Below are positions 2,094 to 6,834 of a stretch of 6,834 nucleotides of DNA, piece by piece. The position numbers and the translations under genes were made by a program. How positions within the stretch are numbered: position 1 is the stretch's first letter; each line of letters begins with the position of its first letter. This stretch comes from a virus, in the UHGV virus genome UHGV-1443059. The stretch is one strand, 5' to 3'. The notes under the pieces are model-generated. The model did not search any database. It worked only from the letters and a program-made list of their open reading frames with translations, and was not told where the DNA came from.

Positions 2094-3359
2094 ATGCGCT
2101 CTGTTATTGTTGCTTTTTTATTTGCCTATTCATTCTGCGTTTCTGCTGAAACTGTTAATTTAAATAATTCATCTGTTCGCTCATTTGTTCAGTGGTATTC
2201 TTCAAAAACTGGCAAGCCTGTTATTGTTAATCCTGATATTAAAGGAAACGTAACCGTATTTAATGCTGATGTTAATCCAACAAATATTGATGATTTCTTT
2301 AAGTCTGTTCTGAATGCTAACGGTTTTGTCATGCTTTCTGGCAATCCTGCGGTAGTCTCTTTGCCGTCTAAATTACCTTCACAGATGGTTTCGGATTCCG
2401 ATGATTCTGATAACCAGTCTTATGATACTTTTCCTTCTGAGCCATCTTACCAGCCAGTACCTGTGGCGCTTACGGTCAGAAATTTTAAGCTGACAAAAGT
2501 TAGATCGTCCGATGTTCAGCAACTGATTAAAATTTATCTTGATTCTAATGGTGGTGGTAATGTCGTGGATTATCCAGGCAATAACTCGCTGATTGTTTCT
2601 GCGCCTGACGAGCTGCTGCCGGTTCTGTCCGATTTTATCAATTCTGTGGATGTTGCCCGCGATCAGGTTCTCATTCAGTCGCTGATGTTTGAAACCAGCT
2701 TGTCTGATGGCGTTGATTTATCGTTTGCGGCAGGTTCTGCATCCGGTCATAAGGTTGCGGGGGGCTTTAATACTTCTGCACTGGGTAGCGCTCTTTCTAC
2801 GGCGGGCGGTTCTTTTGGTATTTTTGATGGTAACGTGTTGGCGCTGTCTCTGCGTGCTGTCCAGAGTAATTCACGCTCTAAGGTGATTTCAACGCCGCGT
2901 ATTCTTACTCAGTCTGGTCAGACTGGTTACATTTCCGTAGGTAAGAATGTGCCGTTTATCACCGGAAAGGTAACGGGCGAATCTGCCGGGGTAAATAATC
3001 CGTTTCAGACTATCGAGCGTCATGATGTTGGCGTTTCTCTCAAGGTAACGCCTGTTGTCATGGGTAACGGGCAACTAGTTCTGACTATCGACACTCGCGC
3101 TGATTCAATCAGCAATGATGATCAGGCATCCGATATTATTACTAATCAGCGCCAGATTCAGACGACAGTCCAGATTAAGGATGGTCAGACGTTGTTATTG
3201 GGGGGGCTTATCGATTCATCGTTCAGCAATGCCGAGCGTTCAGTTCCAGTTATAAGTAAAATTCCTCTTATAGGCTGGATTTTCAGTAGCAAGGCAGACA
3301 GCAATGAACAGCGTATTATGTATATTTTGCTTACAGCACATATCATTCGTCCACTTTGA
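2094..3359 (+). CDS. gIV: Gene IV outer-membrane secretin pIV (421 aa precursor with signal peptide)
   Basis: Start ATG 2094 preceded by AGGAG (2079-2083); the ORF-track start at 2001 is an upstream in-frame extension overlapping gene I. Signal-peptide-like N-terminus MRSVIVAFLFAYSFCVSA|ET. Extensive similarity to M13 pIV, e.g. VTGESAGVNNPFQTIER, DGQTLLLGGL, SKIPLIGWIFSS versus M13 VTGESANVNNPFQTIER, DGQTLLLGGL, SKIPLIGLLFSS. Confidence 0.93.
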   Translation: MRSVIVAFLFAYSFCVSAETVNLNNSSVRSFVQWYSSKTGKPVIVNPDIKGNVTVFNADVNPTNIDDFFKSVLNANGFVMLSGNPAVVSLPSKLPSQMVSDSDDSDNQSYDTFPSEPSYQPVPVALTVRNFKLTKVRSSDVQQLIKIYLDSNGGGNVVDYPGNNSLIVSAPDELLPVLSDFINSVDVARDQVLIQSLMFETSLSDGVDLSFAAGSASGHKVAGGFNTSALGSALSTAGGSFGIFDGNVLALSLRAVQSNSRSKVISTPRILTQSGQTGYISVGKNVPFITGKVTGESAGVNNPFQTIERHDVGVSLKVTPVVMGNGQLVLTIDTRADSISNDDQASDIITNQRQIQTTVQIKDGQTLLLGGLIDSSFSNAERSVPVISKIPLIGWIFSSKADSNEQRIMYILLTAHIIRPL

Positions 3360-3403
3360 TGGATAGCGGGTAGGTGCGTAAGCCCTGCTCGCTATCCATC
3401 AAA
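3355..3403. repeat. Extended inverted repeat/hairpin overlapping the gene IV stop codon (14-bp perfect arms tttgatggatagcg / cgctatccatcaaa, with further inner pairing and a GTAA-containing loop)
   Basis: Arms 3355-3368 and 3390-3403 are exact reverse complements; inner pairs 3370-3374 with 3384-3388. No U-run follows, so not a canonical intrinsic terminator. By analogy with the Ff intergenic region this is where the packaging-signal hairpin sits. Confidence 0.6.
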
Positions 3404-3428: not shown

Positions 3429-3737
3429 ATGGATTCTTATGGGATTTTATCTGCTCTGGCAGAACGAACGATTACAGCGGAAGAAGCAAAAACAATGACA
3501 CTTGCAGCCAGAAGTTCTTCGGCTCAGGTAAATGAAGCATCACTTGCTCTGTTACTGATTGATAATACTCTGGATGCGATCAAAGCAGCTGCCAGTGAAG
3601 GGAAAGGATACACTTTACTTCCTTCTTATGAGATTTCTGTAAAAGCCATTGATTTAGCAGAAGAATTTTTAAGGAAACAATGCGGCTATGTTATTGATAA
3701 CCAGAATGGCGTAAGGACGGTCTATTGGTTTATATGA
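3429..3737 (+). CDS. Hypothetical protein, 102 aa (no recognisable motif; predicted soluble, helical N-terminal half)
   Basis: Intact ORF with ATG at 3429 preceded by GGGGT (3419-3423, 5-nt spacer); ends TGA 3735-3737 followed directly by TAA and a strong hairpin. Not homologous to any Ff protein I recognise. Confidence 0.5.
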   Translation: MDSYGILSALAERTITAEEAKTMTLAARSSSAQVNEASLALLLIDNTLDAIKAAASEGKGYTLLPSYEISVKAIDLAEEFLRKQCGYVIDNQNGVRTVYWFI

Positions 3738-3740
3738 TAA

Positions 3741-3810
3741 CCCCTGACAATGACAAAACTTGCTTTTGTTAGTGTCAGGGGTTGGCCAAGCCGAACAATT
3801 CTGTTTTTTT
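3741..3810 (+). terminator. Strong stem-loop (9 bp + 8 bp stem, 5-nt loop, 3741-3781) followed 22 nt later by a T7 run (3804-3810); candidate transcript end for the 102-aa ORF or a structured phage cis element
   Basis: cccctgaca at 3741-3749 pairs with tgtcagggg at 3773-3781; tgacaaaa at 3751-3758 pairs with ttttgtta at 3764-3771. The U-run is not immediately adjacent, so a terminator assignment is tentative. Confidence 0.35.
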
Positions 3811-3854
3811 AGCGTTATTGCTGATTCGGCGCGGCAGCATTACGAGGAGATAAA

Positions 3855-4088
3855 ATGCAATTTTTCACATCCAGCGATACTGTAATGTTATGTGCGAAGA
3901 CCTGCGATCGCTGTGGTCGCCATGCGAAGACGGTGGTAGATGACATTGAGTTCAATGAGTTTCTGTCTGTTAATCACTTAGCTGGATACGGTTCAATTTT
4001 TGGTGACAGTAATCGCTTAAAACTGGATTTATGCCAACATTGCCTGAAAGACGTCCTGGGCCAGTGGATTACGGTCTGTGACCAATGA
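3855..4088 (+). CDS. Small zinc-ribbon protein, 77 aa, with two CxxC pairs (C17-x2-C20 ... C60-x2-C63)
   Basis: Strong RBS GAGGAG (3844-3849) with 5-nt spacer to ATG 3855. Four Cys arranged as CDRC...CQHC, typical of a Zn-ribbon/treble-clef fold. Sits between the upstream hairpin/T-run and the dif site. Confidence 0.6.
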   Translation: MQFFTSSDTVMLCAKTCDRCGRHAKTVVDDIEFNEFLSVNHLAGYGSIFGDSNRLKLDLCQHCLKDVLGQWITVCDQ

Positions 4089-4126: not shown

Positions 4127-4154
4127 GGTGCGCATAATGTATATTATGTTAAAT
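4127..4154. other. dif: dif site (XerC/XerD chromosome-dimer resolution site): GGTGCGCATAA-TGTATA-TTATGTTAAAT, 28/28 identical to the E. coli chromosomal dif consensus
   Basis: Exact match read directly from the sequence to the well-known E. coli dif 28-mer (XerC arm, 6-bp central region, XerD arm). XerC arm faces the phage genes, XerD arm faces the recombinase genes. Confidence 0.9.
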
Positions 4155-4245
4155 TTAGTCCGTCGGTCATTTAGTTCATAACCGGCCACAGGATACGATT
4201 AATCATACACTTACCTACCCCTCTATCTTCTTCTTGCAGGACGTT

Positions 4246-5700
4246 ATGTTTGTCGGTTACTTTGTTCATATCCACACCATTGATAAGGTTAAGTGCCGCG
4301 TGTTCATACTTACACAACTCAATATCAACCAACGGCAGCGTTTATGGGCACTGATGGATACTCACACGCGCCAGCCGCTTTTATATCCGTTAATATATCT
4401 TATCGACCATCTTGCTTTGCGTTCATCAGCCACGCAATCCGCTTCACTTCAAGCGCTCAAGTTTTTCTATGAATTCTGGCACCAGAAACATGGTGTGACT
4501 TTTTGCTTCAGTTTCTATTCCTCGAACCACAATCCATTGATTGCCATTGATGAACTTACAGCCTTTTTTCATTATCTGGAAAATACGCATTTATATGTAC
4601 CAGCGTTAACCATAAGGTCTACTACGCAGACCACGCCTCAACGTTGTACAAATATCAGGCATGTACATTCGGTTATTCGTTTTATCAGATATTTGATTAA
4701 CACGTATATCTCGCCGAGATATATAGATGGCACGCCTAAAGAGCTTACACGACTTGCCACGCAGTTAACGGGACGTTTATCGATACATAAGGCAGAATTC
4801 CGTACTCTTACCCATTCTCGTCAGATGAACAATGGCACGACCCATAAACGCTTTCGAAGTCTGACTGCTGAGATGGTCATGGCTTTTTACCAAATCATTA
4901 CACCCGGTTCAATTTCAAAGAAAAACCCACTCAATCCCTTCCCCGCTGGTGAAATCCAGCTACGTAATTTTCTGATTTGCAGATTGCTTTTAAATTACGG
5001 ATTGCGTGTCAGTGAATTACTGCTTTTGGAGTGTCATTCGATCAAACCAAATCTCCGAGGGGATCAGTTCAGCCTGATTGTGACCACAGTAGATGACGAC
5101 GTTTCGGATCAACGAAAAAGATTGCCTTCATTAAAAAATGTTTATGCAAACCGGGTGCTGGCATTAGATAAACTGGACTTTCATTTTCTAAATATATATA
5201 TCCATAAAATCCGCCCTCAAGCCTCCCATAGTTTTCTGTTCACTTCCACCCAAAGACTACATCCGCCACTGTCATACCATGCAGTCTATGATATCTTTAC
5301 CCGTATTGATGACATTATGAGTGTGCAGTATCCTGAATATAAAAAAGATGAATATTATGATGCCATTGAAAGCATCTCGCCTCATATAACGCGGCATACT
5401 TGGGCTTATTTAACACTTCAACGTATTTATCGTGATAAACTTCAAAAAATTAAGGCCAACTCACACTTGGCAGCCATAGACTTTTCTATCGTTGGATTGA
5501 TGGATGAAGCCAAGGATGAATTACGGCTACTTGGCGGTTGGAGTCACAATAGCCATATGCCTGATCTTTACGCTAAAAGATTTCTATCTCAGCAGGCTAA
5601 TACGGCCAATCTTCAGCGAATTGTGATTGATAACGAAGCCCTGAAATCAACCTTTTCCCATGTATGCGATGAATGGAGTGCATATGAGTCGAATCAATAA
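4246..5700 (+). CDS. Tyrosine recombinase (phage-integrase family) with ~250-aa N-terminal extension; start codon uncertain (ATG 4246 chosen; TTG 4234 and ATG 4354 are alternatives)
   Basis: Catalytic-domain motifs are present in order: GLRVSEL (box I Arg, nt 5005-5007), HITRH (HxxR-H), LLGGWSH, and DLYAK (catalytic Tyr, nt 5569-5571); compare XerD GLRVSEL, HVLRH, LLGHSDL...IYTH. Confidence 0.88.
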   Translation: MFVGYFVHIHTIDKVKCRVFILTQLNINQRQRLWALMDTHTRQPLLYPLIYLIDHLALRSSATQSASLQALKFFYEFWHQKHGVTFCFSFYSSNHNPLIAIDELTAFFHYLENTHLYVPALTIRSTTQTTPQRCTNIRHVHSVIRFIRYLINTYISPRYIDGTPKELTRLATQLTGRLSIHKAEFRTLTHSRQMNNGTTHKRFRSLTAEMVMAFYQIITPGSISKKNPLNPFPAGEIQLRNFLICRLLLNYGLRVSELLLLECHSIKPNLRGDQFSLIVTTVDDDVSDQRKRLPSLKNVYANRVLALDKLDFHFLNIYIHKIRPQASHSFLFTSTQRLHPPLSYHAVYDIFTRIDDIMSVQYPEYKKDEYYDAIESISPHITRHTWAYLTLQRIYRDKLQKIKANSHLAAIDFSIVGLMDEAKDELRLLGGWSHNSHMPDLYAKRFLSQQANTANLQRIVIDNEALKSTFSHVCDEWSAYESNQ

Positions 5701-6834
5701 ACAGTTAAATGCGTCGAACAGCAACATTTACACACCTGTATTTGTTGAGAGTATTTTAAAGGTTAATATACCAGTTAGTATTTATCTTAAATCGGCAGAT
5801 CATTTTGATGACAAATATATCAGCTCAACAAGTGACAGTTGGGTATTCGATTATTCAGGAAGCCGCTGCTATGCCCACTTTCGTCAGGATAAAATCAGCA
5901 ACCAATTAATCAAATATATTTGCTTCCATTATGCATCTGCCAAGTGTCCAGCTCAGGTTCCTGGGGTACTCCATGCGTGGTCTTTGGCAACTGATCATTG
6001 CATAAGCAAATCTGCTTTCACTTTTACGGTGTTGAAAGATTACCTCGAAACTCAGGAAATTAAACCTCAATATTTCTACTTTATCATTTTCGGCCTAAAA
6101 ATCCTCTGTACCGAAGCATTCCCTGGTTTTACCCTCGAAGATTATGAAGACCTCGAATTCATCCCTCGCCCGCACTCCCATGACTGGGGAATCTATCAGG
6201 AAATTGATCATGTTCTGGATCCCCTCGAAAAAAACATGATCAGTAAAGGCTTGTTTGAAATGGCTGTGGCGATTCGGTATGGCGAAAACTACAGTCTGAA
6301 CACCATGCGAGATGCAGTAATTCTGGGACTGACGTATGTCACCGGTGCCCGACCGGTACAACTGGCCAAGCTGGCGGTAAAAGATTTACGTATTGATACC
6401 CGAAACTCCGAAACCGGATTAATACGATATAGCTTACTCCTTCCTTACGCCAAACAGCGGCACGTAACGACTGAACGTCTGTTTTTGGCGATTCCAGCTG
6501 AAATCGGCGCGTTGATTAGGCACTATATCGAGCGAGCGCAACTAAAACCTGATGGCAAGCTATTTGAATTTAGTAACTCTGCACCGTTTAATGTGTCCAG
6601 AGCGATTAACAAGGCCTTCCTCTGTTTCAGTCCGCCAGATTATCAGGCAGCCGTAAAGCGTGGCGAAGCGGCTTTGCCAACCATTACCCCGACCGACTTG
6701 CGCCACAACGTGGGGCATTCACTGGCTATGCAAGGGGTCAGCGCCGAGGAAATTGCGCATATTCTGGGACATAGCTCCCTTACTGTTGCCAAGTATTACA
6801 TTCTGGCGACGCCTGCACTGGCACTGATTCGAGC
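5684..6834 (+). CDS. Second tyrosine recombinase (phage-integrase family), 3' end outside the window; at least 383 aa
   Basis: Frame 2 is open from ATG 5684 to the window end (translated by hand, no stops). Motifs: TGARPVQLAKL (box I Arg), PYAKQRH (Lys), TDLRH (box II Arg-His), ILGHSSLTVAKYY (His plus catalytic Tyr). Start overlaps the upstream recombinase gene by 17 nt (stop TAA 5698-5700). Confidence 0.85.
   Translation, partial: MSRINKQLNASNSNIYTPVFVESILKVNIPVSIYLKSADHFDDKYISSTSDSWVFDYSGSRCYAHFRQDKISNQLIKYICFHYASAKCPAQVPGVLHAWSLATDHCISKSAFTFTVLKDYLETQEIKPQYFYFIIFGLKILCTEAFPGFTLEDYEDLEFIPRPHSHDWGIYQEIDHVLDPLEKNMISKGLFEMAVAIRYGENYSLNTMRDAVILGLTYVTGARPVQLAKLAVKDLRIDTRNSETGLIRYSLLLPYAKQRHVTTERLFLAIPAEIGALIRHYIERAQLKPDGKLFEFSNSAPFNVSRAINKAFLCFSPPDYQAAVKRGEAALPTITPTDLRHNVGHSLAMQGVSAEEIAHILGHSSLTVAKYYILATPALALIR

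Follow-up and report, generated by a model that had tools for sequence, protein, structure and literature searches.

Antitoxin N-terminal domains usually bind DNA; in MqsA (YgiT), a Cys4 zinc domain at the N-terminus of the antitoxin binds the toxin protein rather than DNA. XRE-type HTH domains are found stand-alone in phages and fused to other domains in antitoxins. Treble-clef DNA binders contact DNA through the knuckle and the helix, and autoregulators normally differ in their DNA-contact residues according to the operator. Among the systems closest to the protein described here are the treble-clef zinc fingers for protein binding or dimerisation (the N-terminal ZBD of ClpX, RING/PHD/FYVE), the Xre/ParS/MbcA antitoxins of RES systems, the phage-encoded Ogr/Delta (P2/P4) and Com (Mu) proteins, and XafT of TLCφ, a small protein of a dif-integrating element that is encoded near the attachment site.

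Inoviruses that integrate at dif have an accessory slot of variable content between the secretion/assembly genes and attR/dif, in which ctxAB is located in CTXφ and novel genes in UPφ. In CUS-1 and YpfΦ, filamentous phages with links to invasive E. coli K1 and third-pandemic Yersinia pestis, the end genes are the only parts of the phage without an assigned role. For the attR-proximal ORFs YPO2280a/YPO2281, which occupy the position of ctxAB in CTXφ, the literature gives no predictable function, and a 2014 review named the function of the CUS-1/YpfΦ terminal genes an open question. Integration of YpfΦ proceeds by the host XerCD on folded attP, and the published work gives the attR-proximal ORFs no function. 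We found no expression or functional data for YPO2281 in the literature.

The window analysed here, a stretch of 6,834 nucleotides from the virus genome UHGV-1443059, contains such a terminal ORF. A sequence-only reading had described it as a small zinc-ribbon protein with strong translation signals next to dif. In this work, one terminal ORF is placed in a family of about 900 clusters that has a predicted fold and a candidate functional loop and is consistently associated with antitoxin-type domains, and the tempting idea that this gene is a Xer helper is removed as unsupported.

Results

The last gene of the prophage is conserved

The host element is a CUS-1/YpfΦ-type filamentous (inovirus) prophage integrated at dif. 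The features of its terminal region are collected in Table 1. Homology to other E. coli genomes stops at the dif sequence, and the phage-phage junction in tandem copies reads GGTGCGCATAATGTACGACTCGTTATGT. By position, the 77-aa ORF matches the attR-proximal ORFs YPO2280a/YPO2281. PGAP calls the same ORF, as a hypothetical protein, and phrog_5435, a group of unknown function, matches the product over its full length with E 4.5e-46, residues 1-77 aligning with the first 77 of the 96 profile positions. The translation signals noted earlier were confirmed, as was the position of the ORF, which is the final gene ahead of an exact E. coli dif. The start codon at 3855 is further supported, because the N-terminal Met is aligned in 140 of the 147 family members. 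Promoter and terminator scans of the + strand upstream of the ORF gave nothing, and no family was present in the Rfam scan.

The gene evolves under purifying selection, as its substitutions show: in comparisons with seven diverged homologues, pN was 0.22-0.34 and pS 0.82-0.90 (saturated). The 77-residue ORF is a genuine conserved gene and optional phage cargo. The 102-aa gene that precedes it is independent cargo with just 10 homologues of its product. The zinc-finger gene is found without the 102-aa gene in L005/L088/L153 and in L084/L090, and a 103-aa homologue is found without the zinc-finger gene in L231/L232. A type II toxin-antitoxin pair made of the two genes was ruled out by this independent occurrence in both directions and by the 117-nt spacer between them, which contains a strong hairpin.

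Table 1. Positions of the features in the terminal region of the prophage (numbering of the 6,834-nt window)
Feature	Position	Strand	Description
102-aa ORF	3429..3737	+	WP_000378924.1; phrog_4115; narrow enterobacterial ORFan
Hairpin	3739..3783		20-nt arms, 5-nt loop, followed by GGGGTTGGCCAAGCC; between the 102-aa gene and the zinc-finger gene
Shine-Dalgarno sequence	3844..3849	+	GAGGAG, read directly from the sequence; ATG 5 nt downstream
77-aa ORF	3855..4088	+	ATG start; six Cys; WP_001159442.1; phrog_5435; final gene of the prophage
First ligand pair	3903..3914	+	C17-D-R-C20, consensus CDRCGR; predicted zinc knuckle between strands 14-16 and 23-25
Near-invariant loop	3984..4007	+	G44-Y-G-S-I-F-G-D51, consensus GYGSxFGDG; between predicted strands 37-42 and 54-59
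Second ligand pair	4026..4043	+	D58-L-C60-Q-H-C63; begins predicted helix 61-71, treble-clef signature
dif (attR)	4127..4154	+	chromosomal type, identical to the E. coli 28-mer GGTGCGCATAATGTATATTATGTTAAAT; 38 nt past the stop codon

The protein is predicted to form a treble-clef-like zinc finger

The two CxxC pairs, C17/C20 and C60/C63 (the latter at nucleotides 4032-4043), are separated by 39 residues. Of the 20 stop-to-stop segments with 60 aa or more in the window, 1 carries a CxxC-x(15-60)-CxxC pattern. The pattern also arises in about 9% of random windows generated by a first-order Markov model, so that the motif alone is weak evidence. The conservation of the cysteines was examined in an alignment of 147 diverse homologues, and the four ligand residues proved near-invariant. 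C17 is retained in 140, D18 in 138 and C20 in all of 144 sequences, and D58, C60, Q61 and C63 in 141, 146, 139 and 145 of 147, respectively. C13 and C75 are variable. All four ligand cysteines are invariant in a 75-sequence domain alignment. An exception at C17 is P0008, a close relative with 71% identity, which carries Ser there.

The AlphaFold (AF2) model of the 77-aa protein had a pLDDT of 93.2. It places C17/C20 in a knuckle between two strands and C60/C63 at the N-terminus of a helix (Table 1). An N-terminal zinc knuckle followed by a central beta-hairpin and by a helix that carries the second ligand pair at its N-terminus makes the predicted fold treble-clef-like. In a classical zinc ribbon both CxxC pairs lie on beta-hairpin knuckles of a three-stranded sheet, and in the model only one pair does. 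The label of zinc ribbon was thus incorrect in the strict sense, and the broader proposal of a small zinc-binding protein fits a genuine Cys4 protein with a confident fold prediction. From the near-invariant cysteines and this prediction, the protein probably binds zinc. No solved or characterised structure was found to resemble the predicted fold; the best match in the PDB sequence-profile search (E 0.014) was C2H2/L37e knuckle noise. Pfam at E ≤ 0.1 gave sub-threshold matches only (zf-FPG_IleRS, 17.3 bits against a cutoff of 21.3, and ribosomal S14), NCBIfam gave nothing above threshold, and the PADLOC anti-phage defence models gave just a noise-level match to Cas8b (E 0.023).

Between the two ligand pairs lies the GYGSxFGDG loop, with an information content of 3.6-4.1 bits per position. 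In the 147 homologues, G44 is found in 143 sequences, Y45 in 118 (and Phe in its place in 21), S47 in 141, F49 in 132, G50 in 141 and D51 in 143. By its conservation, this loop is a candidate functional surface. The protein itself has a pI of 5.4 and a net charge of -3. Across the family, the mean net charge of the domain is -4.0, and 91-96% of the members are negative. Seven conserved acidic positions were counted versus four conserved basic ones, and D18, E32, E35, D51 and D58 are conserved acidic residues. This consistent acidity argues against a plain DNA-binding repressor, and the earlier proposal of a DNA-binding module is weakened by it. Because the loop and the polar residues are invariant across many phyla, a conserved partner fits better than variable operators.

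A large family is associated with antitoxin-type domains

The family searches gave 894 cluster representatives at E ≤ 1e-3, and 897 were obtained in the profile search. This family of about 900 clusters is large and hitherto undescribed, and has no Pfam or NCBIfam model. Locus statistics were drawn from 212 family loci, which were collected with a hand-made degenerate DNA pattern, and conservation and domain statistics from the 147 diverse representatives. Most members are located in tailed phages, in transposon cargo or on chromosomes. The ORF was no longer than 100 aa in 84 of 95 viral cases and exceeded 150 aa in 41 of 117 genomic cases; when the protein is long, the finger is usually N-terminal (46/60). 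The bare domain is almost always found in phages, and in cells it is often fused N-terminally to antitoxin-type domains. The neighbouring genes were grouped by BLAST into 333 clusters, among which there was no universal conserved neighbour.

The only Pfam domains fused to the finger in the 147 representatives were Xre_MbcA_ParS_C (7), DUF4926 (2), SocA_Panacea (1) and dnstrm_HI1420 (1), and the NCBIfam matches of the relatives were to RES/Xre antitoxin models only. P0077 is a representative long finger protein with a C-terminal Xre_MbcA_ParS_C domain. The AF2 model of a natural fusion of the finger to Xre_MbcA_ParS_C had an intermediate pTM of 0.57 and no disordered linker. A split version also exists, in which the gene for a 78-aa finger shares 4 nt with that for a 69-aa protein consisting of Xre_MbcA_ParS_C only (P0165 locus). 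In three loci, finger genes are overlapped by genes for HigA-like HTH proteins, in HigB-HigA order. The genes downstream of the Panacea and DUF4926 fusions are tightly coupled to them, and in Roseateles-group genomes the gene for a long finger protein is followed, after a 2-nt gap, by that for a SNase-family nuclease. No toxin gene is adjacent to the fusion protein P0184, and a RES-domain toxin gene is absent beside P0184, beside the split pair and in the window.

HMM and jackhmmer searches of the loci for Xre_MbcA_ParS_C, HigA-like proteins and integrases gave minority associations only; of the 212 loci, 5 have Xre_MbcA_ParS_C as a fusion and 8 have it as a neighbour. Antitoxin-type fusions and neighbours therefore belong to a minority of the family loci, and this counts against the explanation preferred below, as do the great variety of neighbours, the lack of a toxin gene beside P0184, the Ser at position 17 of P0008 and the usual DNA-binding role of antitoxin N-terminal domains.

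Comparison with the described systems

The Xre/ParS/MbcA antitoxins of RES systems are resembled by the relatives with a C-terminal Xre_MbcA_ParS_C domain and by the split two-gene form. However, the finger stands in place of the HTH, the downstream gene in the Roseateles-group genomes is a SNase-family nuclease, and the window protein is a bare finger, from which the Xre_MbcA_ParS_C (DUF2384) domain is absent. Some relatives have an MqsA-like layout, in which an N-terminal zinc domain is accompanied by an XRE/HigA-type HTH, either at the C-terminus or encoded by an overlapping gene. The window protein, by contrast, is the finger alone, with 77 aa and no C-terminal HTH, and its neighbours are the 102-aa ORFan and dif. 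It showed neither a match to the MqsA/YgiT zinc-domain profile nor structural similarity, and no MqsR-type toxin gene is adjacent. In the CUS-1 context, no recognisable toxin or antitoxin gene lies in an operon with the finger gene. The suggestion of an antitoxin-type module thus has indirect support, in that the recognisable domains fused to the finger in relatives are all of antitoxin type; the kinship to MqsA/YgiT has none, and the DNA-binding part of the suggestion is weakened by the acidity of the domain.

With Ogr/Delta and Com, the window protein shares its phage origin, four cysteines and a length within 60-80 aa. It differs from them in its cysteine spacing (x2/x39/x2), in being acidic and not basic, in its predicted fold and family, and in a context without late-promoter or mom-type features. 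No profile of these families matched the window protein (Pfam, E ≤ 0.1) or the 147 relatives (E ≤ 1e-3), and the idea of an Ogr/Delta-like or Com-like regulator had to be abandoned. As for the accessory slot, the finger is dissimilar to the cholera toxin genes, and its family, unlike ctxAB, is also widespread in tailed phages and chromosomes. The resemblance to XafT is limited to size and to location near the attachment site: the window protein has no Pfam match, the gene is dispensable in a sibling phage, and the family as a whole shows no linkage to recombinases.

Discussion

The location beside dif had raised the possibility that the gene helps to control lysogeny or the direction of recombination. 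A factor of this kind, whether for directionality or activation in the manner of XafT or for control of lysogeny, is very improbable. The gene does point at the XerC arm of attP/dif from a distance of 38 nt, it is the final gene before dif in several dif-integrated enterobacterial elements (at 38, 171 and 578 nt), and in two Paraburkholderia genomes a finger gene overlaps a XerC/D-like integrase gene by 4 nt. However, the zinc-finger gene is missing from a sibling Salmonella inovirus in which dif with the same phage-side flank, the hairpin and the 103-aa gene are all retained; because this phage integrates at dif, a recombination role is argued against. Furthermore, a tyrosine recombinase is adjacent in only 2 of the 212 loci, and most members have no E. 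coli-type dif nearby, as judged by a 28-mer search that would miss the dif of other taxa. Published integration of YpfΦ relies on the host machinery described above, and there is no similarity to known Xer accessory families, because the window protein has no Pfam hit. We therefore reject a Xer accessory or directionality factor: the zinc-finger gene is very probably not part of the Xer/dif integration machinery and is not required there. That the ORF is decaying or non-functional and merely persists in a recently spread prophage is scarcely credible. CUS-1-type copies are at least 99% identical in 231 records, so that selection has had little time within this lineage, and P0004, P0007 and P0009 are truncated or frameshifted variants. 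Against this stand the family-wide conservation, the strong synonymous excess, the confident fold, the good SD and start codon, and the retention of the gene in one and the same slot, behind gene IV, among inoviruses with secretins of just 23-29% identity.

Two further explanations concern the activity of the protein. A small zinc-finger transcription factor, which would bind its own promoter, phage promoters or the hairpin, regulate phage or host genes and be autoregulatory in the cellular fusions, is unlikely. It is favoured by a positional analogy, because the finger takes the N-terminal place of the HTH in canonical Xre_MbcA_ParS_C antitoxins, and by an occurrence, stand-alone in phages and fused in antitoxins, like that of XRE-type HTH domains; the conserved basic residues R19, R22, K65 and R73 lie on the knuckle and helix. 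The negative charge of nearly all members speaks against it, as does the nature of the best-conserved residues, which are acidic or glycine and do not vary across phyla. In addition, the sequence upstream of the ORF yielded neither a sigma-70-like promoter nor an operator-like repeat, the protein is unrelated to Ogr/Delta or Com, and a second DNA binder would be redundant in those relatives that already have a bona fide HTH, fused or in an overlapping gene (HigA-like, dnstrm_HI1420). We consider it quite improbable that the finger is a toxin-like effector that acts on a conserved host target and is neutralised by the antitoxin-type domains, being held in check in CUS-1 by the 102-aa protein or by low expression behind the hairpin. 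Such an effector would account for the split operons that pair the finger gene with an Xre_MbcA_ParS_C-only or HigA-like gene, and for the P0184 fusion, which has no other toxin candidate nearby; the fusion model without a disordered linker also speaks for it, and surface residues invariant across phyla would fit a universal cellular target. On the other hand, most phage copies and many chromosomal ones are solitary, without an antitoxin-like neighbour, the identical 77-aa protein is stably kept on at least 1000 enterobacterial contigs, the 102-aa gene is independent, and the product is acidic with a fold of just about 60 residues. A separate effector candidate (e.g. SNase) is encoded downstream of the Panacea, the DUF4926 and the long Roseateles-group finger proteins alike, so that in these loci the finger would be a second toxin.

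Tentatively, and with slightly less than even confidence, we regard the protein as an accessory zinc-finger module that binds protein and stems from the toxin-antitoxin/conflict world; it is not needed for XerCD integration. The ORF would be a working accessory gene of the 'moron' type in an inovirus that integrates at dif. Its small acidic product would most likely coordinate one Zn2+ through C17, C20, C60 and C63 in a treble-clef-like finger, and would display the glycine-rich GYGSxFGDG loop together with the conserved acidic residues. In cellular genomes the domain would typically be the N-terminal module of antitoxin-like proteins in two-gene toxin-antitoxin or defence-type modules, where it may serve for sensing, partner binding or regulation within the multi-domain protein. 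Its action is most likely the binding of a protein (or ligand) and not operator-specific DNA binding. The stand-alone phage copy may bind the same conserved host partner, for example so as to neutralise or modulate a toxin or defence component, or to titrate it. We infer zinc binding, protein binding and a conflict-system function of the phage copy from these comparisons. A more specific proposal takes the finger for the sensing or partner-binding part of diverse toxin-antitoxin or abortive-infection-type modules; the bare domain of phages, the pathogen-associated CUS-1/YpfΦ inoviruses among them, would then act as a decoy and titrate the partner of such a module, be it a trigger, a toxin or a protease adaptor. 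This is distinctly unlikely as it stands; if this decoy or antitoxin-mimic reading were true, the family would be a new and widespread zinc-finger class in the counter-defence repertoire of phages.

The stable hairpin upstream of the gene is part of its context. The hairpin region folds with -48 kcal/mol (z = -5.0), and an equivalent hairpin with the motif that follows it was observed in the divergent inovirus L005 and in L231, which has no zinc-finger gene. It could be a terminator, a packaging signal or an origin-type structure.

The finger gene in the prophage

The 77-aa protein is a real, conserved finger with four cysteines, which belongs to a large undescribed family and is an optional cargo of the accessory slot of dif-integrating inoviruses. 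Its gene (the finger gene) lies in the right end of a filamentous prophage of the CUS-1/YpfΦ type; the window, which covers this end, matches E. coli KFu015 at 99.9%. In most E. coli genomes compared, homology ends at the end of dif, and the UM146 prophage sits at the dif locus, with hipBA on one side and the ydeP-side genes on the other. KFu015 carries the prophage in three tandem copies (loci L237 and L001; KFu015 2386849-2410700). The phage-phage junctions between these copies are GGTGCGCATAATGTACGACTCGTTATGT, which has the XerC arm plus TGTA in common with dif, and this sequence is consistent with exchange on the XerC side. Two attR-adjacent ORFs of YpfΦ, YPO2280a and YPO2281, which are also in CUS-1 and have no predictable function, occupy the position where CTXφ has ctxAB (2014 YpfΦ review). 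The 102-aa and 77-aa ORFs correspond to them by position only, and the one-to-one naming is presumed.

The left-arm cargo varies by strain: KFu015 (L001 4858-5592) has a Doc-family (death-on-curing) toxin gene without an annotated Phd partner, and UM146 (L002 2439-3644) has an 'ECs_2282 family putative zinc-binding protein' and two hypotheticals. When the prophage is in tandem or circular, the Doc and finger genes converge across the attP junction.

Features of the window and their positions
Feature	Position	Remark
Attachment protein	27-650	C-terminal part
DUF5455 protein	647-991	
Zot/pI	992-2086	
Secretin pIV	2094-3359	
dif-core-like 19 nt	3311-3329	secretin gene 3' end
Hairpin	3355-3403	after gene IV
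102-aa ORF	3429-3737	
Hairpin	3739-3783	after 102-aa gene
GAGGAG	3844-3849	5 nt before ATG
77-aa ORF	3855-4088	finger gene
dif	4127-4154	exact E. coli site
Island	4155-6834	on into L001 12756-25001
Site-specific integrase	4300-5700	466 aa
Site-specific integrase	start 5684	516 aa, adjacent
Hypotheticals	after second integrase	788 aa and 144 aa

The finger gene and its family

The sequence-only reading had described an ORF with an ATG start, the GAGGAG before it, two CxxC pairs (C17/C20 and C60/C63) and a neighbouring dif, and all of these were found in place, with 38 nt between the stop codon and dif. Taken alone, the Cys motif is not strong evidence, because some 9% of equally long random windows have CxxC-x(15-60)-CxxC in an ORF segment. 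The case is made by comparative data. A word-seeded search for relatives gave only 14, while an exhaustive HMMER scan gave 894 cluster representatives at E<=1e-3 and the profile search 897. In 147 diverse members, each of the four ligand Cys was retained in 97-100%, and the remaining two Cys of the E. coli protein showed no conservation. Besides Cys, the positions D18, E35, G44, Y/F45, S47, F49, G50, D51, D58, Q61, L68 and G69 were near-invariant, and the family consensus was CDRCGR...EFxEF.SI...GYGSxFGDG..V..DLCQHC.K..LG.WLRV. Against seven diverged homologues, non-synonymous differences were 0.22-0.34 per site and synonymous ones were 0.82-0.90, which is saturated. This pattern, together with the conservation across the family, shows that the ORF is a genuine protein-coding gene under purifying selection.

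No model in Pfam, NCBIfam or PADLOC matches the 77-aa protein, which is a member of phrog_5435, a PHROG without assigned function. A confident AlphaFold2 model was built from a 75-sequence alignment (pLDDT 93.2, pTM 0.72). In it, C17/C20 are on a beta-hairpin knuckle, and there is a short helix; strands 37-42 and 54-59 form a second hairpin, connected by the invariant loop GYGSxFGDG, and the helix at 61-71 has C60/C63 at its beginning. The protein is thus predicted to be a treble-clef-like finger, and not the two-knuckle ribbon that the earlier label of 'zinc ribbon' implied. A PDB sequence-profile search with the family gave knuckle noise only, Foldseek against PDB gave no characterised structure resembling the finger (top match E 0.07), and the top match in BFVD (E 1.4e-3) led to unnamed small phage proteins. 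We infer that the protein binds zinc. The domain is systematically acidic: net charge averages -4.0, is below zero in 91-96% of members, and the E. coli protein has a pI of 5.4. Conserved acidic positions are 18, 29, 32, 35, 51, 58 and 66, and conserved basic ones are 19, 22, 65 and 73.

Family loci were collected with a degenerate DNA pattern of the invariant core, which matched 99 contigs from viruses and at least 120 from genomes. The hosts cover many phyla and are mostly diderm bacteria, with Burkholderiales abundant among the matches listed; Desulfobacterota, Chloroflexota, Bacteroidota, Acidobacteriota, Nitrospirota, Verrucomicrobiota, Thermotogota and Enterobacterales are also present. 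Viral finger ORFs have at most 100 aa in 84/95 cases and more than 150 aa in 2/95; for genomic ones among the matches listed, the corresponding counts are 48/117 and 41/117. Among the matches listed, 46 of the 60 long proteins have the finger at their N-terminus. Thirteen of the viral loci are inoviruses. Besides the CUS-1 type, two inovirus groups with secretins only 23-29% identical have the finger gene directly after gene IV. An E. coli-type dif, where present, lay 3' of the finger gene and was oriented like it, at a distance of 38, 171, 578 or 1850 nt. In tailed phages, the finger gene lies amid typical small accessory genes.

In one group of tailed-phage contigs (L016, L053, L082 and L091), the finger gene is just upstream of a candidate large terminase ORF, judged as such by eye only, with a gap of -8 to +10 nt. 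The slot before the large terminase subunit is usually that of the small terminase. Some proteins (P0043 and P0129) have two finger copies in tandem, and a Methylotenera contig (L178 1266-1656) has two adjacent finger genes; dimers may thus be the active form of the domain. Many betaproteobacterial members (P0019, P0021-P0024, P0027, P0028, P0031, P0047, P0060, P0066, P0073 and P0087) carry a short conserved linear motif directly behind the finger, F(D/K)PxRHGGEFP, either at the protein end or as a link to the C-terminal domain. Members in MAGs labelled Candidatus Nanosynbacter (L215), Oscillospiraceae (L206) and Thermoplasmatales (L205) are probably binning contaminants; in L215 the CUS-1 secretin and the 102-aa protein are the same as in the window, and L206 matches a plasmid-like contig of Enterobacteriaceae.

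Fused domains and neighbouring genes

All recognisable domains fused to the finger are of antitoxin type. Pfam domains among the 147 members were Xre_MbcA_ParS_C (7), DUF4926 (2), SocA_Panacea (1) and dnstrm_HI1420 (1), and NCBIfam matches among finger proteins were to RES/Xre antitoxin models only. Xre_MbcA_ParS_C is C-terminal in P0077, a representative long protein from the family search, and the AlphaFold2 model of a natural finger/Xre_MbcA_ParS_C fusion was confident per domain, with no disordered linker and an intermediate pTM of 0.57. The fusion also occurs split into an operon of two genes, with a 4-nt overlap between the gene for a 78-aa finger and that for a 69-aa protein of Xre_MbcA_ParS_C only. 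This pair is directly 3' of rve/TniB/TniQ transposition genes in two contigs (L228 and L229 1-4443), apparently as cargo of a Tn7/Tn5053-like transposon. At three loci, a finger gene overlaps with one for a HigA-like HTH protein; the genes downstream of the Panacea and DUF4926 fusions are tightly coupled to them (1-nt and 4-nt overlaps); and Roseateles, Mitsuaria and Paucibacter encode an SNase-family protein downstream of a long finger protein, at a gap of 2 nt. The locus of one fusion, P0184, had neither a RES toxin nor a tight neighbour. Antitoxin-type associations are a minority of loci: among the matches listed, Xre_MbcA_ParS_C is fused in 5/212 and neighbouring in 8/212, and the neighbours are highly heterogeneous (333 BLAST clusters).

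Relation to dif and the 102-aa gene

With 10 homologues, the 102-aa protein is an enterobacterial ORFan of narrow distribution. The homologue that is 60% identical is in a Salmonella inovirus (L231) with matching gene order, which has the hairpin as well as, joined to dif, the phage-side flank (CCATCCTTACCGTTGGTGCGCATAA...) of the window. The finger gene is absent from this phage, with just ATGCAGTTGTAA at the expected gene start. Divergent inoviruses have the finger gene without the 102-aa gene. Since each occurs without the other, the two genes are independent cargo, and the dif-integrated Salmonella phage suggests that the finger protein is dispensable for dif integration. A tyrosine recombinase abuts the finger gene in 2/212 loci among the matches listed, both from Paraburkholderia. 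These two results argue against the recombination role that had been proposed from the placement near dif.

The hairpin upstream of the finger gene is very stable (z = -5.0). It is conserved with the motif GGGGTTGGCCRAGC even in the phage without the finger gene, and therefore belongs to the phage backbone.

Interpretation

We tentatively favour a protein-binding accessory module. The finger domain would belong to toxin-antitoxin or conflict modules, in which it would usually form the N-terminal part of the antitoxin-like component. It is placed there by its fusion partners, all of antitoxin type, and by the candidate effectors encoded in tight coupling downstream. It would bind a conserved protein or ligand, for which the antitoxin MqsA, whose zinc domain contacts protein and not DNA, is a precedent. 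A DNA-binding regulator is unlikely, because an acidic domain with a polar/glycine loop invariant across phyla fits operator-specific binding less well than protein or ligand binding, and genuine HTH domains co-occur with the relatives. In phages, the domain almost always occurs bare, as expected if these copies act as a stand-alone modulator or decoy.

That the finger itself is a toxin-like effector seems distinctly improbable. An accessory factor of Xer is very improbable in view of the dif-integrated Salmonella phage that has no finger gene, and a dead ORF is scarcely credible given the family conservation and purifying selection. Functions of other kinds take the remaining probability. The 77-aa protein is best classed with the small zinc-finger accessory or antitoxin-associated proteins of mobile elements. 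The ORF is already recorded as a gene without assigned function. Within the libraries and literature searched, the size and conservation of the family, the predicted fold, the antitoxin-type architecture of the cellular relatives and the evidence against a recombination role are new.

Additional observations

The two strong hairpins of the window have 20-nt arms and could be terminator, packaging-signal or origin-type structures. The second one, after which comes GGGGTTGGCCAAGCC, is conserved in a divergent inovirus (L005 ~6430-6485) and the Salmonella inovirus (L231 ~5315-5365). The 19 nt at the secretin gene end are 84% identical to the dif core (GCGTATTATGTATATTTTG vs GCGCATAATGTATATTATG), probably by chance. 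Other enterobacterial inoviruses have, between dif and the finger gene or hairpin, a non-coding sequence of some 130 nt (AAC.ACCCTGAG ... GTCATCGCAG) that is conserved (L005 6750-6890; L231 5450-5580; L090 ~4150-4300); it is absent from the CUS-1 type, with its short interval between stop codon and dif.

Homology to other E. coli genomes ends exactly at the last base of dif, where the island of this strain begins. The same island integrase abuts dif in an IMG/VR contig (L003, 99.8%), and in Klebsiella grimontii (L146) a 61% homologue adjoins the dif-like site AGTGCGCATAATCATTGTTATGTTAAAT. The 12 kb examined had no further dif-like site. The region may be a dif-adjacent integrating island. In another inovirus locus (L090 4100-5980), the phage is followed by a degenerate dif-like junction, a second small element with a coat-like ORF of 77 aa and another ORF of 334 aa, and the exact dif, which looks like two elements stacked at dif.
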